From Terriglobia bacterium (lineage in GTDB: Bacteria; Acidobacteriota; Terriglobia; 20CM-2-55-15): DNA of 64,000 nt. The DNA is taken from NCBI GenBank assembly GCA_965218085.1, contig CBDCKF010000001.1:1166581-1230580 (forward strand), given 5' to 3'. Made by a program: the position numbers and the translations under genes. Positions within the stretch are counted from its first letter, which is position 1, and each line of letters starts with the position of its first letter. This document shows positions 11,645-41,744 of the stretch, piece by piece. The notes under the pieces were generated by a model. It searched no databases. It was not told where the DNA came from and saw only the letters and a list, made by a program, of their open reading frames with translations.

Positions 11645-11924
11645 TAGTGCCCTGAGTTAGAACTTCGGTGCTTAACAGTTGCGTCCGGGTCCGATCCGAT
11701 CATCTTCTTACTCTATACGCACGGGCTCGCCTCTTTATTCTGAATGCCGTTCACCCGCACCGTCGGATCGGTTCCGATCGTTCTAGGGTCCGCTTCAACA
11801 TTCCGTCGATCCCGATAGGCCTTGCCATCAGGATGATGGCGAGGGTCGCCGGTCGTTTAGACAGGATGTCTGAATGAACGACCGAGCGAAATCTTATACT
11901 GCGAATTTCTAACTCAGGGCACTA
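11645..11924. mobile_element. MITE family A, copy 1 (TA-flanked, IS630-like ends)
   Basis: Perfect TIR tagtgccctgagttagaa / ttctaactcagggcacta; core shared with four other copies. Confidence 0.85.
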
Positions 11925-12197
11925 GTGACCTGTACCACCCGAATCGGGAGCAGCGCCGATGGGTCTTGCCGGGGAGATCGAGGCGCGAGACGGAGGTCGA
12001 TGTCTTCACATCGACGACGGCTCGCAACAAAGTTATCGCCGGCAACCCCCATCGGCCCAAAGGGTTCGGGCGAAACGGCATTGTCTTCGTTGTCGTCGCC
12101 GCCTCGCAATGTAGGGCCATTTACTCGTTGCCGACTCCTGGAATCCAACGCCGTTTGGCCCGAACGCTGCTCCCGATTCGGGTGGTACAGGCCACTA
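11923..12197. mobile_element. MITE family B, copy 1
   Basis: ~33-bp TIR tagtg(a/g)cctgtaccacccgaatcgggagcagcg; shares the TA at 11923-24 with MITE-A; homologous to 29178-29452. Confidence 0.88.
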
Positions 12198-12209
12198 GGC
12201 ACGCTGTTT

Positions 12210-13373
12210 TCAGCCCGTCGCGCAGACAAAATCAGCGATGGAGTCCAGATCGATTCGCGGATTCTCGCCACACGTTGTGCATTTCGGGTCCTTGCGGACC
12301 TTCACCTGGCGGAACGTCGCTTCCAAAGCGTCGTAGACCAGGAGCCGGCCTGAGAGGGTTTCCCCGATTCCGAGCAGGAGCTTGATGGTTTCCGTTGCCT
12401 GAAGAACGCCGATTGTTCCAGGAAGGACACCCAGGACCCCGGCTTCCGCACAGCTGGGAGCCAGTTCGGGTGGCGCCGCCGCTGGATACAGGCACCTGAA
12501 GCACGGCCCTTCGTGGGGGACGAATGTCGAAACCTGTCCATCGAATCGGAAGATGCTGCCATAGGCGACAGGCTTGTTGAGCGTGACAGCTGCGTCGTTG
12601 ACCAGATACGCCGTAGAGAAGTTGTCCGATCCGCTGACGATGACGTCGTATTCCTTAAAGATATCGAGTACATTGGAGGCGTCGAGCCTCAGATTGTATG
12701 TGTGGACCTTTACATCGGGATTCACCTCGAACAGAGTCCGGCGTGCCGAGTCGGTTTTCGGCACCCCAATTGATGAGGTCCAATGCAGAATCTGCCGTTG
12801 CAGATTCGATTCGTCCACAACGTCGTCGTCAATGATGCCGATTGTCCCTACTCCGGACGCTGCGAGGTAGATCCCGGCTGGAGATCCCAGTCCTCCCGCT
12901 CCAACCAGCAGGACCTTGCTACCGAGAAGCTTCAGTTGTCCCTTTTCTCCAACTTCCGGAATCAGCACATGTCGGCTGTAGCGAGCCATCTGGTCCTTGC
13001 CCACGGTTTCGGGAATGATCAGCTTAAAGCCGTTGTCTTTCCAGTCCCGAATGCCGCCCGCCATCGATCGAACGTTCGCATAGCCGAGCTGATTAAGGCT
13101 CTTTGCCGCGAATGCGGACCGGACTCCCCCGGCGCAGTAAACGACGATGGGCTGATTCTTATCGGAAAGCATCTTCTCGACTTTGACTTCCAGAAAGCCG
13201 CGCGGAAGGAATTCGGCACCTTCGATGTGGCCCTGATCCCACTCGTCTTTTTCGCGGACGTCCAACAGGGCAAAATCCCTGTTGCTGTCGAGTTTAGCGT
13301 TTATTTCCTGAGGACTTACCTCCTCAATTTCCTGCTTCACACCGGTGAGTAATTCGTTGAAATTGGGACTCAT
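12210..13373 (-). CDS. moeB: Rhodanese-MoeB/ThiF fusion adenylyltransferase
   Basis: N-terminal rhodanese (YCAGGVRS), then RYSRH, GAGGLGS, SNLQRQ and two CxxC pairs. Confidence 0.9.
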   Translation of the reverse strand: MSPNFNELLTGVKQEIEEVSPQEINAKLDSNRDFALLDVREKDEWDQGHIEGAEFLPRGFLEVKVEKMLSDKNQPIVVYCAGGVRSAFAAKSLNQLGYANVRSMAGGIRDWKDNGFKLIIPETVGKDQMARYSRHVLIPEVGEKGQLKLLGSKVLLVGAGGLGSPAGIYLAASGVGTIGIIDDDVVDESNLQRQILHWTSSIGVPKTDSARRTLFEVNPDVKVHTYNLRLDASNVLDIFKEYDVIVSGSDNFSTAYLVNDAAVTLNKPVAYGSIFRFDGQVSTFVPHEGPCFRCLYPAAAPPELAPSCAEAGVLGVLPGTIGVLQATETIKLLLGIGETLSGRLLVYDALEATFRQVKVRKDPKCTTCGENPRIDLDSIADFVCATG

Positions 13374-13401
13374 AGTACTCCTCGACCGGTCAAATTCTTC
13401 T

Positions 13402-13427
13402 TAATCCGATCTAAATTGATCAACTTT
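13402..13427 (-). promoter_or_regulatory. Putative Rrf2-family (IscR/CymR-like) operator upstream of moeB
   Basis: Minus strand AAAGTTGATCAATTTAGATCGGATTA resembles IscR type-1 boxes; it lies between a TTGCGA-N18-TACTTT promoter candidate and the RBS. Confidence 0.5.
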
Positions 13428-13509
13428 GTCATGTATCCGTCTAATTAAAGTACAACAATGCTCCGGCATTTCGCAAGACTTCTACCCGAGACTGCGGTGC
13501 CGGCTGTGT

Positions 13510-14202
13510 TCAAGCGACCTTGCCGTCCTGCTCCCAAGCCTCCCCTCGCATCCTGAGTTCGTCTAACACGTTCTGCATCCGGTCGTGCCAGTCCCGTACT
13601 GAAGACTCGTCGGCGTCAGGGGGTATCCAAATCGCGGGTGCTGCAAAGAGCATGGCCCGTGTGAACGGCATTGGGATCTGGAAGTGGTCCCAGCTGCTGA
13701 GTTGAATCTTACGCTTCAACGCAATGTGAAAGCAGAAAATTCCAGCTCCCGTTTTCCGGGCCAGTATGACGGGGCCAGCCTTGGCGACATAGCGTGGACC
13801 GCGCGGGCCGTCTATCGTGAAGGCGACATCGTGATTATTGCGGATTTCGCGAACCATCTGGGCCAGAGCCCGGCCCCCGGCCCGTGAGCTGGAGCCCCGG
13901 GCCGCCCCGTATCCATGACGCTGGATGCAGGCCGCGATTATTTCACCATCGAAGTTCAGGCTCGTCATGACGACAATGCCCCTGTTTCTCCACTGCCACG
14001 TGGCAGGGAATATGCGCCCATGCCAGAAAGTGAATATGGCGCGCTGTCCCGCTTTGTGGATTTCCTCGAGGTGTTCGAAGCCTGTCGCCTGCCACTGCAG
14101 ACTGGGACCGATTAACGCGATCGCCCAGTAGCCGATCCATGAAACGAGGCTGATCTTGATGTGCTCGATTCTCGAGAAGCGGCGTGGCTGGCCGACCTCC
14201 AT
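13510..14202 (-). CDS. Lysophospholipid acyltransferase family protein (DUF374)
   Basis: FWHGR, DGE.IA, RGSSSRAG and IDGPRGP motifs. Confidence 0.88.
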   Translation of the reverse strand: MEVGQPRRFSRIEHIKISLVSWIGYWAIALIGPSLQWQATGFEHLEEIHKAGQRAIFTFWHGRIFPATWQWRNRGIVVMTSLNFDGEIIAACIQRHGYGAARGSSSRAGGRALAQMVREIRNNHDVAFTIDGPRGPRYVAKAGPVILARKTGAGIFCFHIALKRKIQLSSWDHFQIPMPFTRAMLFAAPAIWIPPDADESSVRDWHDRMQNVLDELRMRGEAWEQDGKVA

Positions 14203-14343
14203 TCAAACGTAGTCTTTGGGGTTTCGGGTGAACTTGTCGTAACAGGCGGACGAGCAAAAGTAATATTCCTTGCCTTTGTATTCGGATTTGAATTCCGCCA
14301 TGTCGGGGTCGGTTGGCATTTGGCAGACCGGATCAGTTTCCAT
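14203..14343 (-). CDS. YHS domain protein (46 aa)
   Basis: DPVCQM...YKGKEYYFCSSAC...F..NP..Y; GAAGGAG RBS. Confidence 0.88.
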   Translation of the reverse strand: METDPVCQMPTDPDMAEFKSEYKGKEYYFCSSACYDKFTRNPKDYV

Positions 14344-14559
14344 CGCAGCTCCTTCGGTGAAATAGGGGTAAGTCTCTGGAATTTCCCCCAAGGATAAATC
14401 AAAACGAGTGTGCTGCAAACTCGGGCCGTGGATTTGCCGCTCAATGGGCCGAATCGCCGGCACGGCATCGGGGGTTTCAAAAGAGTGCGAGATAGACTTG
14501 ACCGAAGTCGAGACTATGTATTCAGACGCCTCGAAGCCTTTGAGAAGACTAGGATTTCG

Positions 14560-14832
14560 TTAACTGGTAGCCGCTACCGGGATTACAACCAATCCCATGG
14601 GATCCCGAACGACGCCTTCTACACCCAGGGATTCAAAAATCATTGCAGTCTGCCTGACGCGCTCTGCTGGAACGGTCAGAATCTTGATCGGGCACCTGGA
14701 TTCTTTCATCTGCATTACGGCTGCTGATAGCTCCCATAGGTTGTTTCCGACAACCGCGAGTTCTTCAACTACGGTTTCGGGTCCTTCCGGCCCACACGGC
14801 AACGCCGTCCAGTAGGGTTCTATTTTATTCAT
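14560..14832 (-). CDS. Hypothetical protein (90 aa)
   Basis: Fills an otherwise empty gap; GGAG upstream; no recognisable motif. Confidence 0.45.
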   Translation of the reverse strand: MNKIEPYWTALPCGPEGPETVVEELAVVGNNLWELSAAVMQMKESRCPIKILTVPAERVRQTAMIFESLGVEGVVRDPMGLVVIPVAATS

Positions 14833-15046
14833 CACGTGCAGTCGCTCCGAAATTTTGCGGTGCTTGCTCTTGCTGTTATCCGTATCGACTCTTTTTCCGC
14901 TCTGGGTTACCGAAAAATCGAGATTAAGAAACAAAAGGGGAGACCCACGACCGAATGCTCAAGCCTCAGGTTCCGATATCCAAAGGGTTCGGCGTGAGTT
15001 CGGGGAATCAGTCATCTGTCCCCATTTATTGCATACAATAGTCCAT

Positions 15047-15742
15047 ATGAAGATGTTGCTTTTTGACGTGGATTTAACGCTCGTGAACACCGGCGGTGCG
15101 GGTATTCGGGCCTTGAATCAGGCCAGCAAAGACGTTCTGGGAGTCCCCGAAGCGATGGCCGGGATCACGCCACATGGTAAGACCGATCCGGCTATCGTCC
15201 GCGAAATATTCGCTCAGAATGATCAGAGCGATGACCATAATTTACAATATGTTACATTTGAAATACTTAATAAATACTTAAAATACTTGCAACAGGAAGT
15301 TCGGGACTCAGACCGCTATCGTGTCCTTCCCGGAATTCTTCCCTTGCTCGATCAAATCAGCAAACGTGATGACATCCGTCTGGGACTGGCGACCGGGAAT
15401 CTGGAACGGGGTGCCCGGATCAAACTCGAGCGTGGCGGCCTCAATTCGTACTTCGGGTTCGGCGGTTTTGGTTCCGACGCCGAGGACCGCCGAGAGGTCG
15501 TCCTCGAGGCGGCCCGGCAGGGAAATCTCGGCGGCGGTGTCGATGTGAGTGGGGCTGACACCTACGTCATCGGCGATACGCCGAAGGACATCGAAGCCGG
15601 CAAGCAGGCAGGGTTTCAGACTGTAGGGGTTGCAACCGGCAGTTACTCGGTGGACGCGCTTCAGGCGACAGGGGCCGACTTGGTGATCGAAGACTTTATT
15701 GTTGGCCGCGATCAGTTCCTCGGTTCAACCTGCACTCTGTAG
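15047..15742 (+). CDS. HAD-family hydrolase (phosphoglycolate phosphatase-like)
   Basis: LFDVDLTL, GKTD, LATGN and IGDTPKD motifs. Confidence 0.88.
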   Translation: MKMLLFDVDLTLVNTGGAGIRALNQASKDVLGVPEAMAGITPHGKTDPAIVREIFAQNDQSDDHNLQYVTFEILNKYLKYLQQEVRDSDRYRVLPGILPLLDQISKRDDIRLGLATGNLERGARIKLERGGLNSYFGFGGFGSDAEDRREVVLEAARQGNLGGGVDVSGADTYVIGDTPKDIEAGKQAGFQTVGVATGSYSVDALQATGADLVIEDFIVGRDQFLGSTCTL

Positions 15743-16806
15743 ACATCGATGCGTTCGAGCGGACTCTCGTTTTCCGTTTCGACGGCTGCGATACGTTCAA
15801 CGACGTCCATACCCGCTGTGACTCTTCCAAACACGGTATAGAAGTTGTCCAGAGCGGGTTGATCGTCCAGAACGATGAAGAACGAGGTCAGGGCACTGTC
15901 CGTTTCCTCGCCACGCGCCATTGAGACGATTCCTGCGATGTGTTTAACCTCACTTATCTCTGCGGCAATGGGTACCACGAACTGTTCGGCGTTCTGAGGG
16001 TAGGGTTCCGCCCGCGTATTCAGGTCGCCCGTCTGGATCACGAAGCCGGGAGCGACGCGGTGGAACGCCGTCATATCATAGACGCCCAGAAACGCGAGAC
16101 GCAGGAAATGTCTGACGTGGTCGGGCGCTTCTTCCGGCAAGAACTCCAGCGTGATATTTCCGAACCTAGTTTCTAGCACCGCCTGATACTCGCCCAGTTC
16201 TTCGATGGTTTCCTGGCTGAAGGGGGGCACCGGGGGTGGCGGAATGGGACGGATCCGGATGTCGAGGATCTCGACGCGTTCAAGCGCGATCTGGCTCTCG
16301 TCGGTTGGGGTCATGGAAATTTCGTTGAGGGTTTCCAGACCTTCGACGACGTGAGCGAATGCAGTGAACTGCCGGGTGAACTGCGGCTGATCGCCGATGC
16401 AAATAAAGAACTGCGAGCCGGCGCTGGAAGGCTCACCGGGCAGGATCGTTGCCACTACGGTACCCGAGACGAATTCGATGTCGCTGATCTCGGGTTCCAG
16501 ACCCATGTTGAAGCCTCCGGAGCCGTACTCCGTCGTGCGGTTTGTATCTTTGGTGTACGGATCTCCGGCCTGGACAATGCCCGTCGGCACCATGCTGTGG
16601 AACGTCGTACCGTTATAGAAGTCTTCTTCTACCAGACGTATAAATTGATCCACGTGGACCGGTGCAGCCTCAGGGTAAAACTCGATGACGACGTCGCCGA
16701 CAGGGGTTTCGATGACAGCCTGAAGTTCGAGTGGGTCTGAGGGGGTCAGCCGGGTCGGGTCCGGTGGATTCTGCACGAAGAGCAGAAGTAAGAGAAGGTA
16801 GCGCAT
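15712..16806 (-). CDS. Secreted peptidylprolyl isomerase with two cyclophilin domains
   Basis: Two cyclophilin repeats (FH...F.IQ.GD; SQFFI/TSFFI; YTVFGRV) and a short signal peptide. Confidence 0.9.
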   Translation of the reverse strand: MRYLLLLLLFVQNPPDPTRLTPSDPLELQAVIETPVGDVVIEFYPEAAPVHVDQFIRLVEEDFYNGTTFHSMVPTGIVQAGDPYTKDTNRTTEYGSGGFNMGLEPEISDIEFVSGTVVATILPGEPSSAGSQFFICIGDQPQFTRQFTAFAHVVEGLETLNEISMTPTDESQIALERVEILDIRIRPIPPPPVPPFSQETIEELGEYQAVLETRFGNITLEFLPEEAPDHVRHFLRLAFLGVYDMTAFHRVAPGFVIQTGDLNTRAEPYPQNAEQFVVPIAAEISEVKHIAGIVSMARGEETDSALTSFFIVLDDQPALDNFYTVFGRVTAGMDVVERIAAVETENESPLERIDVYRVQVEPRN

Positions 16807-16817
16807 TGTGGCTCTAA

Positions 16818-16978
16818 CAGGTTCCTGAAAAAGCCCTCAATGGCTTTTTCAGCAACGCCACCCGGGAAGTGTGATTCTCGGGTGGCTCACATTTTCAATG
16901 GCTTACAGCCATCGAAAATGGCGGCACATCCTGAGCCGCGCCGCAGTCTGCCGAAAAACCGAGTTTTTCAGCAGCCTG
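16818..16978. mobile_element. MITE family C (CAGGCTGCTGAAAAA-type ends)
   Basis: TIR caggttcctgaaaaa / tttttcagcagcctg, CTAA direct repeat on both sides, three internal hairpins. Confidence 0.8.
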
Positions 16979-17010
16979 CTAATTTCCCGGCTATAGAGCA
17001 CCGGATGTTA

Positions 17011-18174
17011 TCACGACAGGTCCGACCCTCTCCGCAGAGAACTGTCCCCGTATCGATCGTGAATTTCGTCCAGGGCCTCCGCCAATCGCTCGCTTTGTCC
17101 GGTGGTTTCGAAGAGCGAGAGTTGTTCCTCGTCCTTGCTTGCCCGAAGCAGGTTGCTGGTCCCCACACCGATTAATCGGACGCTTTCCTCCAAAGGGACC
17201 TTTTCGAACAGGGTCCGGATCAGTGCGAAGATCTCATTTCCGGTATCGAGCGGTTCGGGCACCGATGTCTGTCGCGTGAAGGTGGTAAAGCTCTGGTATC
17301 TCAGTTTGAGGGTTATCGTCCGTGTTTTGAACCCCTGGCGCCGCAACCTGCCAGCAACCTTATCTGAGAGCCGCCGAAGTGTTTTCAGAAGCAGATCGTT
17401 GTCGGACGTATCCCGTTCGAATGTCGTCTCGTTGCTGATAGATTTCGGGTCCCACCGTGAAACGACCGGACGTTCGTCCTGACCATGAGCCAGGAGCCAG
17501 AGATGATCGCCGGACGCGCCCAGCGCTTCGACCACTTTCTTGCGGGGAACGGCGGCGAGTTCTCCGATTGTATGAATGCCGAGCTTCTGGAGGCGCGTGG
17601 CTGTTTTAGGCCCGACGCCCCACAACCTTGAGACTGGAAGAGTGGCAAGAAAACCCTCGACCTCGTCTTCCCGGACGACAACGATTCCATCGGGCTTGTC
17701 CAGATCGGATGCGATTTTGGCCAGAAACTTATTAGGTGCTATCCCGACAGAAGCCGTCAGACCTGTTTCTTTCTTAATGGCGGACTTGATGTCCCGGGCG
17801 ATCCCTTCGGCGGCTCCCATCAGCGCTGTCGAACCGCTTACGTCGAGAAATGCTTCGTCGATACTGATGGGTTCGACCATGTCCGTATATTGGCGCAATA
17901 TACCCATGATGGCCTCGGACATTTCCTTGTAGCGTTCCATCCGCGGGCGTAGATAAACGCCGTTCGAGCAGCGTCTCCAGGCGTGGCTGATTGGAAGAGC
18001 GGAGTGAATACCGAGTTTGCGTGCTTCGTAGGAACAGGCCGCTACCACTCCGCGCCCGGTTCCGGCTTTAGGGTCGGCGCCCACGATGACCGGTCGGCCT
18101 TCGAGTTCGGGCTGATCGAGTTGTTCGACAGACGCATAGAAAGCGTCCATATCCACGTGCAAGATTTGACGCAT
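17011..18174 (-). CDS. dinB: DNA polymerase IV
   Basis: HVDMDAFYASVE, SYEAR, SIDEAFLD and AKIASDLDKPDG motifs. Confidence 0.96.
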   Translation of the reverse strand: MRQILHVDMDAFYASVEQLDQPELEGRPVIVGADPKAGTGRGVVAACSYEARKLGIHSALPISHAWRRCSNGVYLRPRMERYKEMSEAIMGILRQYTDMVEPISIDEAFLDVSGSTALMGAAEGIARDIKSAIKKETGLTASVGIAPNKFLAKIASDLDKPDGIVVVREDEVEGFLATLPVSRLWGVGPKTATRLQKLGIHTIGELAAVPRKKVVEALGASGDHLWLLAHGQDERPVVSRWDPKSISNETTFERDTSDNDLLLKTLRRLSDKVAGRLRRQGFKTRTITLKLRYQSFTTFTRQTSVPEPLDTGNEIFALIRTLFEKVPLEESVRLIGVGTSNLLRASKDEEQLSLFETTGQSERLAEALDEIHDRYGDSSLRRGSDLS

Positions 18175-18189
18175 TGAGCTCGGGAAGAA

Positions 18190-18639
18190 TCAGATGTGGT
18201 ACATCAGCAGGCGTTCGCGGCTTCGGTGCTGCCTTACGAGGTCGGCGAAGGTGACTCTGTTGAGGACGGAACCGATTGCGCGGTCGACCTCGGCCCAGAC
18301 AGGTTTGAACTGGCATGTGCTCTCCCTGTCACAGTCATCTTCAAATCTGCCGGACTCCAGACACGAGAGCTGAACAAAAGGACCGCTGATGCTCTGTATG
18401 ACGTCGCCAATCGTGATCTCTTCGGGAGGACGCGCCAACACGTAACCGCCGTCGGTACCCCTCTTGCTACGAACGATATCGACGCGCTTCAGCACCTGCA
18501 TAATCTGGAAGAGAAATTTTGCAGGTATGTTCTGCCTCTCGGCTATGTCCTGGACACGGATGGGTGAATCTGGATCGTAGTTGAGCGACAATTCGAGCAC
18601 GGCGGAACAGGCATATTCGTCCTTCGCGGAGATCTTCAT
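18190..18639 (-). CDS. Rrf2-family transcriptional regulator with three Cys
   Basis: SKRGTDGGYVLARPPEEIT motif; C-x9-C-x5-C potential Fe-S ligands. Confidence 0.92.
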   Translation of the reverse strand: MKISAKDEYACSAVLELSLNYDPDSPIRVQDIAERQNIPAKFLFQIMQVLKRVDIVRSKRGTDGGYVLARPPEEITIGDVIQSISGPFVQLSCLESGRFEDDCDRESTCQFKPVWAEVDRAIGSVLNRVTFADLVRQHRSRERLLMYHI

Positions 18640-18739
18640 GCCGCCCCACTATAGCACGTGAGAATCCCCGTAGATGCCGATTCAGAGCTTTGAAATCGCT
18701 GCAAATGCGGACAGGCGAAAGGAAGAAATGAGGGGCTGC

Positions 18740-19034
18740 AAGTGTCCTGAGTCACAAGTGCGCTCCTTTATTAGCTTGTCTCAGTCCGACCCGATTATTT
18801 TATTGCTCTGGACGCCTCGGCTACCGCCTCGTTGTCCACCCGCACCGCAGGACCGGTGCGGGTCCTTATGGGAAACACTTCAACATTCCTCCGATTCCTA
18901 TAGAGGCCTCGCCATCAGGATGATGGTGAGGGTCGCCGGTCGTTCGGCCCAACGCGCTTGACGCGACAGAGATGGTAAGCCGTTTGAACGACCGAGCGTA
19001 TCTTATTGTCGTGAACGTCTGACTAAGGACACTA
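18740..19034. mobile_element. MITE family A, copy 2
   Basis: TIR agtgtcctgagtca / tgactaaggacact; family A core. Confidence 0.8.
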
Positions 19035-20435: not shown

Positions 20436-20522
20436 ATCCCGTCCTCCTTCACTCATCATTCTTCGCGATACGGTCGCATCGGGTCCGTTTGAATCTGTGA
20501 AGTGGACTTTAACCACGGGCTG
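19036..20522 (-). mobile_element. IS1182-family insertion sequence
   Basis: TIR cagcccgtgg...aagt / actt...ccacgggctg; CTAG duplicated at 19032-35 and 20523-26. Confidence 0.88.
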
Positions 20523-20582
20523 CTAGGACCTTTGCTCCGCTGTGTCAGATTCAGGCAGGAGAAACTTTGGACCTATTGATCC

Positions 20583-22012: not shown

Positions 22013-22023
22013 ATTGATCCGGC

Positions 22024-22956: not shown

Positions 22957-23229
22957 CAGATGGCTCGGTATTATATCTGCCCCCACGGCATTGCCTAACG
23001 ATGAACAATTAGAAACGAATTCGAGCAACACTATAGCCGGACTTTCTTCGTGGGTTCCAACGCTTGCTCCATAATGGAAGTTGTTGCGGCCCGGAAAAGG
23101 ACCCAATCTGTCTGTCGAAATGAGATGCTGAGGGGGCACCGGACATCTGGGTTTCGGCGCCTCCCCTGAGGCCCTTTCTTGGCTCCGCGCATCGACGAGT
23201 TATGTCGAGCATGTCTTTAATATTTGCCC

Positions 23230-26791: not shown

Positions 26792-26976
26792 ATGGCGAGG
26801 CCTATAGGGATCGGCGGAATGTTGAAGTGGTCCCCAAAAGGACCCGCACCGGTCTGACGGTGCGGGTGGACCGCTTTCAACGGAAAGACGCGGTAGCCGA
26901 GGCGTCTAGAGTAATAAGATAATCGGGTGGGACTGAGACACTCTAATGAGGAGCGCATTTGTGGCTCCGGGCGCTA
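26792..26976. mobile_element. MITE family A, copy 3 (inverted, truncated)
   Basis: Reverse complement matches the left ~185 nt of copy 2 and ends within the GCCAT hairpin. Confidence 0.78.
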
Positions 26977-28495: not shown

Positions 28496-28705
28496 GTGAA
28501 AAAGAAGTTGGAAGCCCTCATCACCGAAATGATCGACAGCGGCATACTTTTTGGGCAGGCCGGGGACGAATTCGAAAAGAGATTCATACAAACCGCACTT
28601 GGCAAGACGAAAGGCAACCAGACCCGAGCTGCAGAGATGCTCGGCATCCACCGGAACACCTTGAATCGGAAGATTAGCGTGCACAAGCTCAACGGCCGAA
28701 GATAG
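28496..28705 (+). CDS. Stand-alone Fis-type HTH protein
   Basis: EKRFIQTAL..TKGNQTRAAEMLGIHRNTLNRK. Confidence 0.88.
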   Translation: MKKKLEALITEMIDSGILFGQAGDEFEKRFIQTALGKTKGNQTRAAEMLGIHRNTLNRKISVHKLNGRR

Positions 28706-28779
28706 CCGGAGCGCCTCATACATTCGGGTACGGGCTCGCGGCTACCGCTGATCCAACCTGAGAGATTTTCGCCTGGAAG

Positions 28780-29569: not shown

Positions 29570-29827
29570 GCTTTGCCTCCACTTGAATGAGTCAGTCATC
29601 GGCCCGTGGATCCGACAGGATATGGGAGTGCGCACAGGTCCGAGTGTCCTGCAGTGGGTCCTATCTTAGTGCATAGCGACTTGTATTGAACGAACTTGAA
29701 AGCCGTTTGGATTGTGTTGTTGGGTCGGTTCGGCTGATCGATTGCCCGTCGTTGTCGTATCGGCATCGTCCATGCTTATCTGTTTCGACAGCTCACTAAC
29801 CGCTATCGATAGCAACTGGAGCACACC

Positions 29828-30664: not shown

Positions 30665-30705
30665 GGTAGGTTTCTGGAATTGGCGAGTCGTAGGGGCTTT
30701 CCTGA

Positions 30706-32076: not shown

Positions 32077-32091
32077 GCAAGGGTCCAACGT

Positions 32092-33249: not shown

Positions 33250-33322
33250 TGGGCTGATTATAACGGTCCGCTGAGGCTTGGAATGGGACAGTTGCCTCTA
33301 TCCGCAAATTGAGGTTATGGGT

Positions 33323-34647
33323 CAGTAGTGTCCCAACGTTAGTTGAATAGATTCAGTTGTTTGGAGTTCTCCGAGTCTGAATCTTGATAGTCGAGGGCGG
33401 AAAGGGCCTTTAAAAGGGGCGTTTTTTCGAAAACGGTGACGCTGACGATCTGGAGAATTCGGTAGAGACTGGCGTTGACATTGAGCCGTTTTTTCACGAT
33501 GGCAACAAGCAAATAGACCGAGATGGCGGTCCAGATTTGAGTCTTCAGCGCATTGGGGGTTGTGCCGTAGAACGCCTTGATGCGTAGGTGCTGTTTGATC
33601 CACTTGAAGAACAGTTCGACCTGCCAGCGGCAGCGATAGAGTTGGGCAATGGTCGCCGCTGGCAGCGCGAAATTGTTGGTCAGGAAGACGAGGTACTTGT
33701 TGTGCTCTCGATCGAGAAAGCGAATGCGGCGGAGTTTTTCTGGATAGCGCTTGCGAGAGTAAAAGCCGCGTAGGCTGATGATCTGATCGCTGAGGACTCC
33801 GGTGGACTTGTCCACATCGAGTGAATAAAGACGATTGAAGACGAAATTCTTTTTCGCGCGTGTCACGAAGAACGCCGCCGCGACACTGATTTTGTACAGG
33901 CGCCGGAAATCCAGATAACCGCGATCCATGATGTAGAAGGCTCCGGGCTCGAAGGCGAGTTGATCCAGAAGATGGAGGTCGTGAACTTTGCCGTGTGTAA
34001 TCAGGATAAAGGAAGGAATATTGCCGCGCAGATCCAGAACCGTGTGCAGTTTGACAGCTCCCTTGTGCTTGCGGAAGCGTGCCCACGGGAACAGGGAAAG
34101 ACACAGATCGATCGTTGTGGCATCGAGTGCGTAAACCGTCTGCTTGAGGTCGACACCGAAACTGTCGCCAACATAGAGCTCGCGAGCCATGGAGATCAGC
34201 GTCTGGGCGAAGTCGGCATAGATACGCCAATCGCGCACCTGATTCGCATTCGCAAGGGTGTTGCGGGAGACGCGGCTGCGAATGCCCATGTGATAAAGCT
34301 TCGTGCCAGCCGAACGCAGACAGGCTTCGATATCGCGCAGACTCTCCCGGTAGGTCAATTGCGCGAACGCCATGCACAGAAACTGATCCCAGCAGGAAAA
34401 ACGTTGGAGTTTGTAGTTGCCACGGTAGCGATCGACGCATCGACGAAAGTCTTGACGGGGAAGAAAGTCCATCAGCTGAGAGAAGATCGTCTTGCCGGAA
34501 TTCATAGGCCGCCTCCTGCCGCAAAGTCGCGGAAGGATGCCGCCAGTACGCAATCAAATTCAAATCGATTTTGGCTCTCAGCCGATCTAACATGACCATT
34601 CTCAATAACCTGTGGGCGACGCCCATCTAAACGTTGGGACACTACTG
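33323..34647 (-). mobile_element. IS4-family insertion sequence
   Basis: Perfect 18-bp TIR cagtagtgtcccaacgtt; 9-bp direct repeat gttatgggt (33314-22, 34648-56). Confidence 0.95.
33339..34505 (-). CDS. IS4-family transposase
   Basis: FAQLTYRESLRDIE, LDATTIDL, MDRGY and YRCRWQVELFFKWIKQ (YREK) motifs. Confidence 0.96.
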   Translation of the reverse strand: MNSGKTIFSQLMDFLPRQDFRRCVDRYRGNYKLQRFSCWDQFLCMAFAQLTYRESLRDIEACLRSAGTKLYHMGIRSRVSRNTLANANQVRDWRIYADFAQTLISMARELYVGDSFGVDLKQTVYALDATTIDLCLSLFPWARFRKHKGAVKLHTVLDLRGNIPSFILITHGKVHDLHLLDQLAFEPGAFYIMDRGYLDFRRLYKISVAAAFFVTRAKKNFVFNRLYSLDVDKSTGVLSDQIISLRGFYSRKRYPEKLRRIRFLDREHNKYLVFLTNNFALPAATIAQLYRCRWQVELFFKWIKQHLRIKAFYGTTPNALKTQIWTAISVYLLVAIVKKRLNVNASLYRILQIVSVTVFEKTPLLKALSALDYQDSDSENSKQLNLFN

Positions 34648-34655
34648 GTTATGGG

Positions 34656-34952
34656 TAACGCCTCAGTTTGAAAACGCAGGTGATTGCCGACTTGATCCAA
34701 TCATTTTCTTCAACTGACGCCTCGGCTCCGCGTCTTTGTCTTGAAAGCTGTCCATCCGCACCGGGAGACCGGTGCGAATCCTTCAGTACCGCTTAAACAG
34801 TTCCGTATGTCCATAGGCCTCGCCATCAGGATGATGGTGAGGGTCGCCGGTCGTTCAGACCACGCGGGGAACGCGACAGAGATGGTCATCTGAATGAACG
34901 ACCGAGCGAAATCCCTTTTTCGGTGGAGACTGAAGATCAAACTGAGGCACTA
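34656..34952. mobile_element. MITE family A, copy 4
   Basis: TIR taacgcctcagtttga / tcaaactgaggcacta; family A core. Confidence 0.8.
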
Positions 34953-34956
34953 TCGT

Positions 34957-35871
34957 CTAATCGGCGTCGAAAGCGTTCCAGTGTACCTGTAACGATGCCG
35001 CCGTGTGCTCGCGCGCGTAGTCCCATCCGTGACGTCCCGGGTAGAGGTGGAACTCGTGGTCGATACCTCGCGCATCGAGAATATCGTGAAGCTGCTGGGC
35101 CCCGGCATAGAACCCGTATTGGTCTTCGGTGCCGCAGTCGAAGTAAATCTTCATGCCGTCGAGGTCAACCACGCGGGCGATGCCCAGCGGATTGTTCTCG
35201 TCCCAAGCCGACATGCTCTCCGACACACCGAATATTTCGTCAAAGAGGGAGAGATATAGCTGACGTAAATCCGGGCGGACTATCGTGCTTTCCAAATCAT
35301 CGAGCAGCATCGCGCTATGCGCGCTGACCGAGCCAAACAGATCGGGATTCTTCATGGCAAGTTTCAAAGCCCCATAGCCACCCATGGACACACCGCTGAT
35401 CGCGCGCCCTTCTCGCGTTCCAAGTGTGCGGTTGTCTGATTCGATCAGCGGGATGAACTCTTCGGTAACCATGTCTTCCCATCGTTCGCCCGAAACGGAG
35501 TTGGTGTAGAAGCTGTTTTCTCCGAAAGGGATGGCGACAATGAACTCTCCGATCTCACCATCCACGATCATTTGGTCAAGCATCAGGTCGGTGCGCCCGC
35601 GGGTGCTCCATCGTTTCTCGTTCTCGTTCGCTCCGTGGAGGAAGAACACGACGGGGTAGTCCTGGCCACTTTCTTCGTAGGACGGCGGTAAATAGAGTCC
35701 GTAGGGTATTTCGCGAGCAAGGATGGCGCTCGGGAACGTCTTGTACTGGACTCGGGATCCCTCGGGGATGATGTCCCGATCCGAGCGCTGGCGGAAAGCT
35801 GGACGTTGGCCGTCGAGGGCGGGAACACACAGGAGAACAAGAGCCAACGTAAGGAGATGGCGCCGGCGCAT
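34957..35871 (-). CDS. Secreted alpha/beta hydrolase (putative esterase)
   Basis: YLPPSY, FLHG, GVSMGG nucleophile elbow, GRHGW; signal peptide. Confidence 0.9.
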   Translation of the reverse strand: MRRRHLLTLALVLLCVPALDGQRPAFRQRSDRDIIPEGSRVQYKTFPSAILAREIPYGLYLPPSYEESGQDYPVVFFLHGANENEKRWSTRGRTDLMLDQMIVDGEIGEFIVAIPFGENSFYTNSVSGERWEDMVTEEFIPLIESDNRTLGTREGRAISGVSMGGYGALKLAMKNPDLFGSVSAHSAMLLDDLESTIVRPDLRQLYLSLFDEIFGVSESMSAWDENNPLGIARVVDLDGMKIYFDCGTEDQYGFYAGAQQLHDILDARGIDHEFHLYPGRHGWDYAREHTAASLQVHWNAFDAD

Positions 35872-35875
35872 GGGT

Positions 35876-36259
35876 TTATTCCTCTTTCTGTGCTGTGACT
35901 GCCTCTTCGGTTTCAGATTCCGACTCGACGCTATCGTCGAAATGGCGGATGAGAAGTGCTTCAGAAGCCTTATCTGTTAAATCCACAATCGCGGCCGCGT
36001 TGACCCCCATCGTGATCGCGATCGTCTCGCTCAGTTCTTCGCGGGTCGCCCCGTACTTGAGCGCCTTCTTGATATGCCCTTCGAGGCAACCATCGCAATG
36101 AGTCGCGAGAGATGCGGCGATCGCGATCAGTTCCTTGGTCTTTCGATCCAACACCGAACTCTTGTAGGTCTCCTGGTAGAAGCGGAAATAAATTTTCCGC
36201 ATCTTGGGCTCGACCATGGTGTAGGACGGCCATTTTTCTTTACCGGTATCACTGCCCAT
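35876..36259 (-). CDS. AhpD/carboxymuconolactone decarboxylase family protein
   Basis: LDRKTKELIAIAAS..THCDGCLEGH...GATREE (CxxC). Confidence 0.9.
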   Translation of the reverse strand: MGSDTGKEKWPSYTMVEPKMRKIYFRFYQETYKSSVLDRKTKELIAIAASLATHCDGCLEGHIKKALKYGATREELSETIAITMGVNAAAIVDLTDKASEALLIRHFDDSVESESETEEAVTAQKEE

Positions 36260-36323
36260 AAAGGCGTTGCTCCATCAGTGTTTACTTCCTCTAGAGAAAT
36301 ATTCGTGTAAAAGAGAATACGGG

Positions 36324-38327
36324 TTACGCGGCGATGCCGTCAAGGATCAGGCGTACAGTCTCGGTCAGTTCGCTCAAGGGGAAAGGCTTGGGGAGAAGTC
36401 CGTCAATTCCAAGAGTTTTGATGGCTGCGAGTCGTTCGGGAGCAGCATAACCGGTCGCCACCAGCACTTTGGCGTGGGGATAGTGGTGGCGAATCGACTT
36501 CAACGCAGTCGGGCCATCCATTACCGGCATGATCATATCGAGGATGACCAGATCGACGTCTGCGTTCATCCGGTCGAGGGCCTGGGCCCCGTTAGAAGCA
36601 TTGAGAACCCGGTATCCAAGATGTGACAGGGAGATTTCCATCAGTTCAAGCAAGTGCGGTTCATCATCCACGACAAGGATCGTCTCCCTGCCTTCAGATA
36701 TTTCCAATTCGACGACCTTGGATGTTTTGACCGCTTTATGCGCTATGGGGAACCAGAGACGGAACTCCGTCCCCGTCTCCACGCCGGTCTCTACGTCAGT
36801 CTGCAGTGTGGTCTCCACATCAATAGTCGCGCCGTGGCGTTTGACGGTAGCGTAGGCCATGCTGAGACCGAGACCCGTGCCCCGCCCGCGTTCCTTTGTT
36901 GTGAAAAACGGGTCGAATATTTTGTCCAGAACAGCCTCTTCGATGCCCGGCCCTGTGTCACGCACACTGAGTTGAACACCCTGGTTGTCCGCTCGAGTCT
37001 GGATCGTAATCGAACCTTCTCCCTCCATGGCATCGCGGGCATTGACGGCGAAATTGATCAACATCTGGATGAGTTCGCCTTCGTCGCCTTCGATCGTTGG
37101 CAGCGTTTCGGCAAGATCGAGTTGGATGCGAACCGTGCGCGCGAGTGTTTCTTTGAGTAATTGCTCTGCGGACCGTACCACGTCGTTCAGGATCAGGGGT
37201 GCAACCGACGGTGGTTCGTCTCGTGCCATTGCCAGAAGCTGCCCGGTCAGTTGTGCGCCACGCTTGGATGCGTCCACGATCGCCTCGAGGCGTCGACCCC
37301 GTTTGTCCGGCGCATCTCTCGACTGGATCAGCTCCGCGGTAGGCAATATGATTCCCAGTATGTTGTTGAAGTCGTGCGCTATGCCACTGGCAAGGGTTCC
37401 GATGGATTCCATCTTTTGGGTGCGGGCCAGTTGGTGCGAGAGTTTTTTCTGTTCGGTGATATCTCGAACGATCACTGAGACCCGGACTGAATCTGCGACG
37501 GCGCTCACCAGCCCTACGAGGGTTTCGCCGTTGGCGGATCGAAACTCTGCTTCGAAATCCTGAAGAGAACCCTCTCTTCGGACACGCGTTTCGAACAATT
37601 CAGCAGTTTCAGGATTTACAAACAGTTCCTTGAGGTTTGTCCACAACTCCGCTTGAGAACACAGAGTACCTGCTGCCTGATTAGAATCGATTATGCGGAG
37701 GTCCCGCGTGCAGATGAAGACACCATCCTGCATCCGCTCGACGAAAGTTCTGTACTTCGCTTCCGATGCTTTCAGATCTTCATAGAGTTCGATATTGGAG
37801 AGAGCACTGGAGAGTTGGGGGGCGACCATCATCAAGGTGCGTTCGCTGGCCGGAGAAATCGACGACGGTTCCTCGTCGGCCAGGATCAATAGCGCCTGGC
37901 ACGTGTCCCGGGCGAGGAGGGGAACGAAAAGCCATGACCTGAGTGCGGGAGGGAAGGGCCACAGACTGTTGTCCAGATTTACGGCGCCCAGATCCGGAAG
38001 CGCGACCGGTCCGGTCTTGGCTGTCAAGCTGCCGGGTATCACGGAGAGCTTGAACGAGGCCGGGAAGCGTGCATCACCGAAGAGTGTCGAGGCGGCTTGT
38101 AGTTCGTACCGTTCTTCCAGGCTTTGACGGTACAGGAGTGCATGTTTCGACAGTGTGGCTTCAGCGATGACTTCCACCAGCTCCTCGGAGAGCTCGCGTG
38201 TCGAAGTGTGACGGCTGACAGCTTCACCCACGCGGCTGACGAAAGAAAGCTCATCGATCTTCGAACGAAAAGCCGCATCGGCCTTCTCGAGCGCGGCGCT
38301 CAATTGCGTAACAGGATCATCATGCAT
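36324..38327 (-). CDS. Hybrid sensor histidine kinase (GAF-PAS-HisKA-HATPase-REC)
   Basis: [32 protein letters not shown]; receiver ILVVDDE and LDMIMP. Confidence 0.93.
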
Positions 38328-38335
38328 GCGCTTAC

Positions 38336-39157
38336 CTAAAGCACCTTGAAGAAGTTATCGATATCTTCCGCTTTCGTCCGGAGGTGTTCGGCGACCTCGT
38401 TCCAATCCCCCCAATCCCCGATGTCGCTTTCCATACACTCCCCCTCCAGTCCCATTTCGCTTGACGCCGCGATTCGGTCGCTTACCTGTACGATATCGGC
38501 CAGGGTTTCGGTGCCGAGCGCCTCAACAGAATCTCGGTGATGATCTTCGACCGCGGCCACGAAGGACTCGGGCAGTTGCCAGCGTTCGGCAAGCCAGACG
38601 CCGGCCTGAAGATGGTCGATGCCCAGCATGGTGCGTTCGACCGCATCGCGCGCACCGCCTTCCTGGCTCAAGCTCTCCTGCACTCTTTCGTATTCTTTCG
38701 GGAATCCGGTGTCGAGGACGAGCACTCCAATGTCATGCAGAAGGCCGGCGCAAAAGGCTTCATCGGGAGATGTGGTCCCGGACCTCTCGGCGAGAAACGA
38801 TGAGGCGTAGGCGACGGCCATGGAGTGCCTCCAGAAATTGGCCCGCTTGTCGCCACTCGATTTCCATCGATCGAGAGCGAACGCACACAGCGACAACTGC
38901 TTCAGCATCGTGGACCCTATGATGGATACAGCGTGACTGAGAGTGCGGACCTCGGCCCGATGTCCGTAGTATGCGGAGTTGGCCAGACCCAAGACCTTCG
39001 CTGTCAGGCTTTGGTCACGGGACACAGTGCTCGCGAGTGTCTGATGGCTGCTCCGCTCGTCTTCTGCCGCCAGAAGAATCTTGCGAGCAACCACCGGTAG
39101 CGTGGGCAGATCACGAAGCGCATAGATACGCCTCTTGAAGTCAATGGCCGTCGACAT
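38336..39157 (-). CDS. HDOD domain protein
   Basis: LPTLP, D..L.AKVL.LANSAYY, FWRHS, AGLLHDIG, DH...G..LAERW.LP. Confidence 0.93.
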   Translation of the reverse strand: MSTAIDFKRRIYALRDLPTLPVVARKILLAAEDERSSHQTLASTVSRDQSLTAKVLGLANSAYYGHRAEVRTLSHAVSIIGSTMLKQLSLCAFALDRWKSSGDKRANFWRHSMAVAYASSFLAERSGTTSPDEAFCAGLLHDIGVLVLDTGFPKEYERVQESLSQEGGARDAVERTMLGIDHLQAGVWLAERWQLPESFVAAVEDHHRDSVEALGTETLADIVQVSDRIAASSEMGLEGECMESDIGDWGDWNEVAEHLRTKAEDIDNFFKVL

Positions 39158-39199
39158 ACTATTCCCCCGACACACTATTCCCCCGACACACTATTCCCC
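39152..39199. repeat. 3 x 16-bp tandem repeat spanning the HDOD RBS and start codon
   Basis: cgaca(t/c)actattcccc repeated three times. Confidence 0.92.
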
Positions 39200-39450
39200 A
39201 ATCCTGGAATCGACGATTCGGACTCTAAACTTTAGGAATTTCTCCAGATGGAGACCTGCACCAATAGGCGGATCAAATCGGCCGTAACAGGTTGATTCGC
39301 AGGGGTCTGACTCCTTTGGCCCTGTTGACAGTCTCTCAGTTGGTTGAGTAATATGCCGGGTCATGCTTGACGAAGGATTCCTTCCGGGACCCCTGTTAGT
39401 CATTAGTGTTAAGGTTAATAAGTGAAGGTACTGAGCCGGTAAACAGGACC

Positions 39451-40539
39451 ATGTTTCAGACACTACTGCCCGATCATCTTACGCGGCTGACCGAAGGCGA
39501 GACCGATCGTCGAATCGCCGAAGTCAGGGAGCGCCTGGGTTCGGGCTTAGTGGTTCTCGGGCACCACTATCAGCGCGACGAAGTGATCAAGTTTGCGGAC
39601 GTTCGGGGGGATTCGTTCAAGCTCGCCCAATGGGCCTCCCAGCAGAAGGATGCTGAATTCATAGTCTTTTGCGGCGTCCATTTCATGGCCGAAAGCGCCG
39701 ACATATTGAGCGCTCCCTACCAGAAGGTGATTCTGCCGGACCTCGGCGCGGGTTGTTCGATGGCGGACATGGCTGCTCTGGATCAGGTGGAAACCTGTTG
39801 GGACGAACTCAGCAAACTGACGTCTGAAACCATCATTCCGATTACCTACATGAATTCTGCGGCCGGTATCAAAGCGTTTTGTGGGCGTCATGATGGTGCT
39901 GTATGCACATCGTCGAACGCGCCTGCTGTAATGCGTTGGGCTCTGGAGCGCGGGGACAAGATAGTGTTTCTTCCCGATCAACATCTGGGACGCAACACAG
40001 GCTATCAACTGGGATTCCGCCTGGAAGAGATGTCGGTTTGGGATCCGTACGAGGAACTCGGCGGGAACACTCCTGAGGAATTGATCGAAAGCCGCATCGT
40101 GCTCTGGAAGGGCCATTGTTCCGTTCATGGGCGCTTCCTGCCCGAACACGTGGTGCGGGTGCGTCAACGTTATCCCGACATCCGTGTAATCGCCCATCCG
40201 GAGTGCCGCTTTGACGTTGTTCAGAGGTCCGATGCCGTGGGTTCCACCGAGCACATAATCAAGTGTGTGACGCAGTCACCTGTGGGAACCCGGTGGGCGA
40301 TCGGGACGGAGATTCACCTGGTCAACCGCCTGCGAAACGAAAATCCCGACCGATTCATCATTCCCCTTGATGATTGCGGGTGCCTCTGCTCGACGATGTT
40401 CCGTATTGATCCCTCGCACCTGCTCTGGTCAATGGAGAGCCTTCTCGAAGATCGAGTGGTCAACCAGATCACGGTTTCCGACGAAGTGGCGCGCTGGGCA
40501 CGGGTTTCGTTGAACCGGATGCTGGAAATCACGCACTAG
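39451..40539 (+). CDS. nadA: Quinolinate synthase
   Basis: GHHYQ, FCGVHFMAE, GCSMAD, YMNS, CTSSNA and HPEC motifs. Confidence 0.95.
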   Translation: MFQTLLPDHLTRLTEGETDRRIAEVRERLGSGLVVLGHHYQRDEVIKFADVRGDSFKLAQWASQQKDAEFIVFCGVHFMAESADILSAPYQKVILPDLGAGCSMADMAALDQVETCWDELSKLTSETIIPITYMNSAAGIKAFCGRHDGAVCTSSNAPAVMRWALERGDKIVFLPDQHLGRNTGYQLGFRLEEMSVWDPYEELGGNTPEELIESRIVLWKGHCSVHGRFLPEHVVRVRQRYPDIRVIAHPECRFDVVQRSDAVGSTEHIIKCVTQSPVGTRWAIGTEIHLVNRLRNENPDRFIIPLDDCGCLCSTMFRIDPSHLLWSMESLLEDRVVNQITVSDEVARWARVSLNRMLEITH

Positions 40540-40651
40540 CGATTTTAGTGACTGACTGATGCGAGAGTTAGGAGTTGACAGTCATGGCTGCGGAGATCAG
40601 ATCGCGTCTCAATTTTTAGCTCATACCGATTAACTCGACTTCACCCGAACA

Positions 40652-40930
40652 GTGGCCCCTACCTCCAGAAAAATCTTTACCGTAAGTGGAATTGTCCAGG
40701 GTGTCGGCTACCGTTATTTTGCTTCGACGGCGGCCCGGCGCCACGAGATTCTGGGCTTTGCGAAGAATCTGGCCAATGGCCAGGTCGAGGTCGTCGCGGA
40801 AGGTGAAACGGTGGCGTTGGCTGCTTTTAAACAGGAACTGGAACGTGGGCCGGACCATTCGTGGGTGGACGGGGTCACCGAATCCGATTCCGAAGCTATG
40901 AAACCATTTACAGCCTTTAATATCCTTTAA
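40652..40930 (+). CDS. acyP: Acylphosphatase
   Basis: VSG.VQGVGYR and N..NGQVEVVAEG motifs. Confidence 0.9.
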   Translation: MAPTSRKIFTVSGIVQGVGYRYFASTAARRHEILGFAKNLANGQVEVVAEGETVALAAFKQELERGPDHSWVDGVTESDSEAMKPFTAFNIL

Positions 40931-40948
40931 CATCCGAGGTCTAAGTAC

Positions 40949-41464
40949 ATGGATGAGTTTAAGAAATTGATCCGTGAAGTGCCGGACTTTCCGAAGCCCG
41001 GTATTCTCTTTTACGACATTACGACTCTGCTCAATCACCGCCCCGGTTTTTGTCGGCTGATCGATTACCTGACGCTTCAGACACGCCCGATTCAGGCGGA
41101 CTTTGTCCTGGGAATCGAAGCCCGTGGTTTCATATTCGCACCGGCGCTCGCCTACAACCTGAACGCTGGATTCGTTCCGATCCGCAAGCCGGGGAAACTT
41201 CCCGCCCAAACCGAAGCGGTGAGCTACGATCTGGAATACGGCACGGACACGCTGGAAATCCACACAGGGGCATTTCCTAAAGGAAGCCGGGTCATCATCG
41301 CCGATGACTTGCTGGCCACCGGCGGGACGGCAAGAGCGGCAGCGGAACTGGTGGAGAAGGCGGGTGGTGTTGTCGCCGGCTTTACCTTTGTCGTGGAGTT
41401 GGAGTTTTTAAGCGGCAGGGACAAGCTCAGCGGCTACGAAGTATTTTCCTTGATCCAATACTGA
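40949..41464 (+). CDS. apt: Adenine phosphoribosyltransferase
   Basis: [25 protein letters not shown] and DDLLATGGT motifs. Confidence 0.96.
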
Positions 41465-41467
41465 AAC

Positions 41468-41744
41468 GAGTGGCCTGAGTCAGAAGTCCCGTCTTTACAG
41501 TTTCGTCATGTCAGAACCGTTCATCTCTTACTCTAGACGCACGGGCTCGCGTCTTTACTCTGAAAGCGGTCCACCCGCAGCGTCGGACCGGTGCGGGTCG
41601 TTCTGGGACCCACTTAAACTTTCCGTCGATCCCCATAGGCTTCGCCATCATGATGATGGTGAGGGTCGCCGATCGTTCAGACAGGATGTCTGAATGAACG
41701 ATCGAGCGAAATCTTATATCGCGAACTTCCAACCCAAGCCACTA
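41468..41744. mobile_element. MITE family A, copy 5
   Basis: TIR agtggcctgagtcagaagt / acttccaacccaagccact; family A core. Confidence 0.8.

Follow-up and report, generated by a model that had tools for sequence, protein, structure and literature searches.

We analysed a window of 64,000 nucleotides from the genome of a Terriglobia bacterium (assembly GCA_965218085.1, contig CBDCKF010000001.1), in which a preliminary description had flagged five repeats. All five were confirmed, the third one inverted and partial as described, as copies of one family of MITEs, miniature transposable elements bearing inverted repeats, with ends of the IS630 type. Our analysis shows that the family rose to many copies by insertion at TA within the rare sequence CTAG, very often at the TAG stop codons of genes, and that it did so in the lineage of a single uncultured genus of Terriglobia. 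It also shows that the parts needed for movement, that is the terminal inverted repeats (TIRs), the flanking TA, the arms and the linkers, decayed at about the neutral rate, and that purifying selection, acting locus by locus, has preserved in at least five species an interior of about 180 nt made of four hairpins (P1, P2, P4 and P5/6). This inverted conservation, with decayed ends round a four-hairpin interior whose loops are conserved at syntenic sites across species, is what distinguishes the family. We consider it probable that the interior of an old IS630-type MITE family was co-opted here as a structured module of the REP/ERIC kind.

Within the window, copies 1, 2, 4 and 5 are full length. 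Copy 1 (11645-11924, plus strand) has TA at both ends, lies between minus-strand genes and is syntenic with a copy in the congener G004. Copy 2 (18740-19034, plus strand) carries an extra branch in its last hairpin, and its left TA has decayed to AA. Copy 3 (26792-26976, minus strand), inverted and truncated, begins directly after the stop of an open reading frame (ORF) of 1184 aa and reaches from the left TIR to within the 5' arm of P4, being cut inside the third hairpin. Copy 4 (34656-34952, plus strand) has a second TIR type (TA-GTGCCTCAGTTTGAA-like) round the same core, carries the extra branch and adjoins an unrelated high-copy insertion sequence. Copy 5 (41468-41744, plus strand) is located between convergent genes; in the congener G001 the same genes flank a site with no copy, but this is not a clean excision. 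The optional branch of about 20 nt, first noticed in copies 2 and 4, was recovered in multi-copy alignments as the trait of a subfamily. The four hairpins can be followed on the plus strand of copy 5. P1 (41535-41572) is an outer helix, (A/G)GAC ... GTCC, round a variable insert, and its second pair covaries between G-C and A-T. It is followed by P2 (41573-41598), a 10-bp hairpin with a loop that is GGA in most copies of the family, and by P4 (41640-41664), an 11-bp hairpin in which one pair occurs in all four Watson-Crick types and the loop is AGGAU-like (AUGAU in this copy). The last one, P6/P5a/P5b (41666-41709), is a long bulged hairpin with a lower stem that is 95-99% invariant, an apical stem that covaries and the loop AGGAU.

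The genome to which the window belongs (G000) consists of two contigs and comprises 6.36 Mb with 57% G+C. A profile built from the five copies gave 194 matches in it and a profile built from 126 copies gave 203, of which 160 scored above 90 bits, 139 spanned the whole core and 89 ran nearly end to end. Seventy-eight full copies gave a consensus of 284 nt, which has a perfect TIR of 24-26 nt with a C-TA-G flank at both ends, in agreement with the TA flanks and IS630-like ends proposed earlier; relative to this consensus, the TIRs of individual copies are decayed. In a minority of copies, copy 4 included, the same core sits within a second TIR type that is related to the first; we found six TIR pairs of this type, 282-313 nt apart. 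G000 contains three IS630-type transposase genes, all intact, of 363 aa and with DDE_3 and helix-turn-helix domains. The termini of these three IS630 copies have CTAGTG and GTCA.A in common with the MITE ends (CTAGTG...GTCA.A) and differ from them in between, and none of the three contains the MITE core. Judged from these sequences, the mobiliser was likely one of the IS630 copies or an extinct relative. One IS630 copy of G000 lies 65-70 bp from a MITE copy (L001). In G001, an IS630 copy 82% identical to that of G000 begins within the last ~10 nt of the MITE left end at loci L043, L047 and L051; this arrangement was seen in 3/3 of the fetched loci holding an IS630 copy, at about 2251-3411 in each, and may reflect either a composite unit or nested insertion into a CTAG that the end of the MITE restores.

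CTAG is the preferred target of IS630 elements. In G000 it occurs 4643 times, against 7489 expected from a Markov model and 23835 expected from base composition, which makes it about five-fold scarce by composition, and 463 of these sites (a tenth) are C-TAG stop codons. Among 151 gene 3' ends facing an intact element end, the stop codon is formed by the flanking TA and the first base of the element in 53 cases (TAG in 50, TAA in 3). Since insertion at a TAG stop keeps the protein unchanged, target choice alone accounts for much of the siting of the family at gene ends.

We then compared the conservation of the different parts of the element. Among the 78 full copies of G000, mean pairwise identity was 0.57-0.63 in the TIRs and 0.82-0.89 in the P4-P6 core, and mutual nearest neighbours differed by 15-22% in the TIRs and by 6% in P4-P6. 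The same was measured between species on 21 pairs of syntenic copies with the same orientation and a G000 match above 90 bits. In the profile alignment of these pairs, identity was 0.62 in the left TIR, 0.58 in the right TIR, 0.63-0.74 in the left arm and 0.53-0.70 in the 41-nt linker between two conserved hairpins, as against 0.86 in the P1 region, 0.81 in P2, 0.91 in P4 and 0.88 in P5/6. The flanking genes of the same loci were 0.54-0.72 identical at third codon positions and 0.86-0.92 at first positions. These values indicate that the ends and linkers drift like synonymous sites and that the hairpins are held like sites that determine amino acids. When copy 1 and its counterpart in G004 were aligned directly as a pair, the same pattern was seen by eye. 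That the interior is more conserved than the termini, which had been proposed from the five copies, is thus found both within the genome and at syntenic sites, and is stronger than was claimed. Less remained of the proposal that the two ends of a copy change together: concordant non-consensus states numbered 250 against 180 expected, a weak co-variation that fits the shared ancestry of subfamilies. Left and right TIR ends agree about as often as under independence, indicating that TIR pairing is not maintained.

The family is old. Nearest-neighbour divergence among G000 copies was 5.8% at its minimum and 17.7% at its median, and among 126 copies the flanking TA was kept on the left in 69, on the right in 63 and on both sides in 36. 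As there is no young copy, the nearest neighbours being at least 5.8% apart, the family looks immobile in G000, and the word mobile, applied earlier to the module, does not describe its present state in this genome. From four congeners, 82 copies were taken with their flanks, and both flanks could be placed in G000 for 57 of them. A copy was present at the same site in G000 for 30 of these 57 (12/15 for G001, 7/12 for G002, 5/12 for G004 and 6/18 for G003), and the other 27 placed sites held a copy in the congener and none in G000. This indicates that many insertions are older than the species split, others having been gained or lost later. Syntenic copies resembled each other only modestly more than they resembled random paralogues, which fits a spread that is old relative to the species splits. 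The syntenic G000 copy was among the 16 most similar cores, out of ~160, in 7 of 21 cases, where about 2 were expected; this sharing of core variants above expectation argues for inheritance locus by locus, with no homogenisation. In the rare-variant spectrum, used as a test of in-situ decay, the fast sites were saturated. At 6 of the 30 shared sites (L036, L045, L046, L049, L084 and L112) the element was inverted in place between collinear flanks, as in L036 compared with C2:2273555-2273842 of G000. A detailed look confirmed five of these inversions and the sixth likewise reads as inverted; they result either from recombination between the element's own TIRs or from re-insertion at the same TA.

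These results bear on the idea of a cis requirement for the core in transposition, in which it would offer sites to the transposase or a host factor and its conservation would follow from copying having been limited to elements whose core was intact. Such a role would account for the presence of the same core in two TIR types and could be in keeping with the IS630 copies that abut the MITE left end in G001. However, it leaves the TIRs, which are certainly needed for transposition, as the least conserved part of the element, and the conservation of the core is seen after insertion, between syntenic copies of different species. Moreover, there are no young copies, and the three IS630 copies of G000 do without the core. 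We regard a requirement of this kind as highly improbable.

To define the fold, RNAalifold was applied to the 126 copies, but it returned a sparse consensus only, and the helices were defined instead by pairing frequency and covariation. For this, all column pairs of the 126 G000 copies were scanned with a G-test and average product correction. The top covarying pairs were Watson-Crick swaps within helices, led by A-T/C-G (92:25), A-T/G-C (80:39) and G-C/A-T (79:36), with one pair occurring in all four Watson-Crick types. Pairing frequency gave helices of 10 bp for P2, 11 bp for P4, 4+7 bp with one bulge for P6+P5a, and 7 bp for P5b. The fold was also examined in a set of 67 copies, 63 from the four congeners and 4 from the window (alignments A3 and A4). 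In this set 90.5% of the cells were paired and 23 of 41 pairs changed on both sides; two-sided changes amounted to 138 cells, against 37.9 in shuffled alignments (0 of 500 shuffles reached 138) and 19-58 in slid controls. The hairpins read earlier as ACCCGCA.../...TGCGGGT (P2), CTCGCCATCA/TGATGG(C/T)GAG (P4) and GGTCGTT/AACGACC (P5a) are present and covary strongly, and the compensatory change GATCG/CGATC of copy 5 proved to be a recurrent swap from G-C to A-U (13/126 copies in G000 and 11/67 in A3). The first hairpin of the preliminary description, GACGC/GCGTC, had to be rejected: its middle pair failed to form in 58 of 66 cells, and it covaried no better than shuffles. The helix that encloses it, GGAC/GTCC (P1), covaries instead (G-C 79, A-T 36 in G000). 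Besides the covarying pairs, some positions were 93-99% invariant with no covariation: the P5/6 lower stem, the one-base junction that joins P4 to P6 and the bases following P6. Unpaired loop and junction bases were 77-99% conserved. The invariant stem, junction and loops indicate that the sequence is read as well as the shape. Altogether, compensatory covariation and syntenic conservation at the level of first codon positions bear out that the interior is under selection for its fold.

In a few copies a loop was flipped, showing TCC for GGA with the stem kept: this was observed in P4 at L097, in P5b at L105 and in P2 at L051, L084 and L091. Flipped loops are the mark of intra-hairpin template switching in DNA. 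The core might have no function at all, the stems being kept paired by hairpin-templated correction and the copies being kept alike by gene conversion or by a low mutability of paired DNA. The flips and the in-place inversions do attest that palindrome-driven DNA events occur, and strict Watson-Crick pairing with no tolerance of G.U (see below) is what templated correction is expected to leave; the constraint is also blind to gene context. Nevertheless, unbiased correction from arm to arm would fix as many changes as it removes and would not slow the stems 3-5-fold below third codon positions, and the unpaired loops and junctions are conserved too. Conversion tracts would be expected to span the 41-nt linker between the conserved hairpins, and this linker is only 53-70% identical; in addition, core variants are common to syntenic copies more than to paralogues, so that the copies are not homogenised, and the same consensus is found in five species. 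We therefore judge it unlikely that the core is kept with no function.

Next, we looked at the placement of the copies relative to genes. Out of 160 strong copies, 88 lie between co-directional, 58 between convergent and 14 between divergent genes, where 104, 28 and 28, respectively, were expected from the counts of intergenic regions (p=8e-10). Between co-directional genes the orientation is 68:20 (p=3e-7), and the strand that is mostly transcribed is the reverse complement of the model. An orientation bias with that strand transcribed, which had been suggested from the window copies, therefore holds genome-wide. Next to stop-codon-coupled genes the bias is 34:19 (p=0.05). The orientation bias and the excess of convergent over divergent spacers count in favour of an RNA role. 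Rather than function, the orientation bias could reflect an insertion filter such as polarity within operons. As for orientation relative to replication, both contigs of G000 had a GC skew and a gene-strand bias too weak and noisy for replichores to be defined.

Several observations weigh against a co-opted module, in particular one acting as RNA. Core identity to the consensus stayed at 0.86-0.90 in convergent and divergent spacers and in both orientations between co-directional genes, and such a context-blind constraint is not what a role in read-through transcripts predicts. G.U-type mismatches were no commoner than other mismatches, and wobble showed no link to the transcribed strand: copies in the opposite orientation had 41 G.U against 35 A.C on the plus strand and copies in the same orientation 24 against 17 (Fisher p=0.70). 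A lack of G.U tolerance is unusual for a selected RNA fold. A consensus scan of copies 1, 2, 4 and 5 found no sigma-70-like promoter, and the search for terminators in these copies yielded one weak terminator-like site, at the end of copy 2. Contigs from RNA libraries (two runs, small shares) touched no MITE copy. The in-place inversions at 6/30 shared sites are palindrome events at the DNA level, which make paired changes possible with no selection, and to them are added the loop flips, numbering 3 in P2, 1 in P4 and 1 clear case in P5b among the 67 copies of A4. Furthermore, the gene calls behind the context counts came from a crude, purpose-made ORF scorer, and the identities of the fast-evolving parts, taken from a profile alignment, are perhaps somewhat too low. 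An automated count gave 4 flips in P5b, a figure that includes inserts of the extra branch merely containing TCC. Over the window, the RNA-library contigs covered only 33323-34647, which is the insertion sequence next to copy 4 and is matched with several mismatches, and a short stretch at 43673-43859; DNA contigs break at the MITE copies.

The six TIR mismatches of copies 4 and 5 had been described as all A.C, which would be G.U on the other strand. This stands for copy 5, whose reverse strand folds better (-117 vs -100 kcal/mol). In the inner helices no strand asymmetry was found genome-wide. Only P4 leans to one strand, with 47 G.U against 15 A.C cells on the plus strand, mostly at one position, and this may be a single inherited variant. 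With wobble not tolerated on the transcribed strand and a constraint blind to context, the view that the folded strand is RNA was not borne out, and we found no evidence for a guide-like or self-cleaving role of the core. The active form may be RNA or extruded or single-stranded DNA; the tests tip slightly towards DNA, or towards a role for which it makes no difference which strand is transcribed.

An RNA function of the plus strand was nevertheless considered on account of its loops, since CsrA-type proteins recognise GGA in hairpin loops. On the plus strand only, GGA is found in the loops of P2, P4 and P5b in 84, 95 and 95 of the 126 G000 copies (67-75%) and in 54, 54 and 56 of the 67 copies of A4 (81-84%). 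The core would then act as a plus-strand RNA whose three GGA-loop hairpins bind a CsrA-type protein, either as a dispersed sponge like CsrB/RsmZ or as a CsrA site in cis. The two best loops are CAGGAUG and ACAGGAUGU, although in the P4 loop the conservation of the first G reaches only 77%, and P2 retains GGA across three differing stem and loop variants. The lean of P4 to G.U on the plus strand would also suit this reading, but no strand-specific wobble signal emerges over all helices and no promoter-like site was found in the four full-length window copies scanned. G000 has two CsrA genes above the Pfam cut-off; one of them is directly downstream of fliW, and in a fliW-csrA pairing the antagonist is a protein, not an RNA. 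The plus strand is antisense in 68 of the 88 copies between co-directional genes. With the plus strand mostly antisense to the neighbouring genes, binding of CsrA to the core as RNA is a minority reading, and we find it improbable. The fliW-csrA pair is located at C1:53724-54411, and an orphan csrA-like ORF of 82 aa at C1:221234-221359.

To determine how far the family extends, we searched related genomes. By BLAST, it was present in 4/4 congeners, which are metagenome-assembled genomes (MAGs) of uncultured Terriglobia, and in 0/36 of the further genomes searched from the family and class. A covariance model with 142 positions and 37 pairs, built on P2-P6, likewise matched 4/4 congeners, and found low copy numbers in 3/30 genomes of other genera of the family and nothing in 130 genomes from 12 other families of the class. 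The matches in sister genera keep P4-P6 through compensated stems, so that a P4-P6-like module exists, rarely, in two sister genera; they showed no synteny with G000 copies. One of these matches (L122, in G049, ~1700-1790 of the strand shown) lies just 3' of an apparent tRNA gene, and no IS630-like ends were seen there. When 185,579 species, each represented by one genome, were scanned for an exact motif, 24 loci were returned, 22 of them in Terriglobia MAGs; leaving aside the other two, the family was confined to this genus. Another is a true copy at the end of a 3.9-kb contig binned as Planctomycetota, a contig that we suspect to be misbinned. A locus in an Actinomycetota MAG was rejected as a member, only the 26-nt motif being matched.

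The family was compared with known systems. In agreement with the earlier remark that no family was recognised, no Rfam family reached its gathering threshold on the element, nor did an E-value threshold yield one; with Rfam 15 the window yielded a tRNA only, and the best sub-threshold scores on copy 5 were 12-19 bits against cut-offs of 33-45. The Bacillaceae-1 RNA motif gave a weak likeness to the UCCU-type loops of two hairpins on the minus strand (15 bits for a 35-bit cut-off, E=2.7). RNAs of the CsrB/RsmZ type have several GGA-loop hairpins, as does the plus strand here, but unlike them the family shows no gene-like promoter and terminator in the four window copies scanned, reaches no Rfam threshold and is dispersed in hundreds of MITE-borne copies. 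REP/BIME elements number in the hundreds, as short palindromes placed at the 3' ends of genes and between convergent ones, with compensated stems and with host factors acting at the DNA and the RNA level. The family resembles them in forming hundreds of 3'-end palindromes whose stems are kept by compensating changes. REPs are units of ~35 nt spread by a RAYT (Y1) transposase, with neither TIRs nor TA duplication. A link to REP/RAYT was rejected: the sole Y1_Tnp match of G000 is at C2:449874-450200, and the nearest listed match of the family is at C2:386112-386331, none being within 60 kb. ERIC copies are said to have been found old, largely immobile and conserved by Wilson and Sharp in 2006.

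Passages of one source describe ERIC/IRU as a TA-flanked, MITE-like repeat at gene ends that is co-transcribed and whose orientation decides its effect on mRNA stability (PMC2229807). The likeness to our family is in behaviour only, namely age, TA flanks, a position at gene ends and orientation effects. ERIC is one long 127-bp hairpin made of the whole element, whereas here pairing of the ends is not kept up and separate inner hairpins with conserved loops are preserved, and the phylum differs. RUP of pneumococcus, a MITE ascribed to IS630-Spn1, is presented in passages of the same source as non-coding, with TIRs resembling those of an IS630-family element of its own genome, a TA target, about a hundred intergenic copies and a stable folded transcript (PMC2229807). 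Its IS630-type MITE build, TA target and many intergenic copies are shared with the present family. Compared by description only, RUP measures 107 bp with a 9-bp TIR and the present element ~284 nt with a TIR of 24-26 nt. What sets the present family apart from RUP is its interior of four hairpins, which outlasts the TIRs and shows conservation across species. Finally, CIR of Caulobacter and Brucella is intergenic and conserved between species, according to passages of this source, with two hairpin arms and a short motif in the terminal loop (PMC2229807). Conservation between species and a motif exposed in a loop are common to both; in CIR, however, the loop motif is a GANTC methylation site and there are no TIRs, whereas here the loops have GGA (TCC on the other strand) and the ends are of the IS630 type. 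The literature searched contained no account of this family and none of a link between CsrA and a MITE.

If the interior was co-opted, as we favour, the host would have taken it over as a folded nucleic-acid module, as is thought for REP/BIME, ERIC and CIR. A sequence-specific partner would read the loops of the hairpins, the junctions and the P5/6 lower stem, which is invariant, and the module would work at gene 3' ends. A bolder version, which we put forward tentatively and hold to be rather doubtful, is that one MITE burst wired the folded module into more than 100 gene ends across the genus and provided, with three GGA/UCC loops and an invariant stem, a platform for a single host protein, either a paralogue of CsrA or a factor that binds hairpin DNA. 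If so, the repeat family would define a genus-wide regulon, or a system of chromosome organisation, built by transposition. Bacterial MITEs are usually seen as junk in which the ends matter most; here the ends decay and the interior is held, which makes the family a clean and countable case of host takeover of mobile-element cargo at more than 100 loci. It concerns the Acidobacteriota, in which almost nothing is known of post-transcriptional or chromosome-level control, and the 142-position model together with hundreds of natural variants gives a means to seek the partner. If the function is protection of 3' ends, or if there is none, the family would be an ordinary addition to the list of ERIC, REP and RUP.

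Two other features of the window were noted. The sole Rfam match mentioned above is a tRNA gene at 45121-45194. The insertion sequence next to copy 4 measures 1324 bp (33323-34646), has a perfect TIR of 18 nt and is flanked by duplicated 10-nt sequences (33313-33322 and 34647-34656), an apparent 10-bp target duplication. Its first bases (TAGTGTCC) are like a MITE end, and its ORF of 434 aa matched no Pfam or NCBIfam model. BLAST gave 39 matches in the genome, and 24 of the 25 matches listed were full length with 99.6-100% identity; from such sequence identity, the insertion sequence seems to have been recently active. One DNA contig was exactly devoid of it, the joint skipping 1334 bases.

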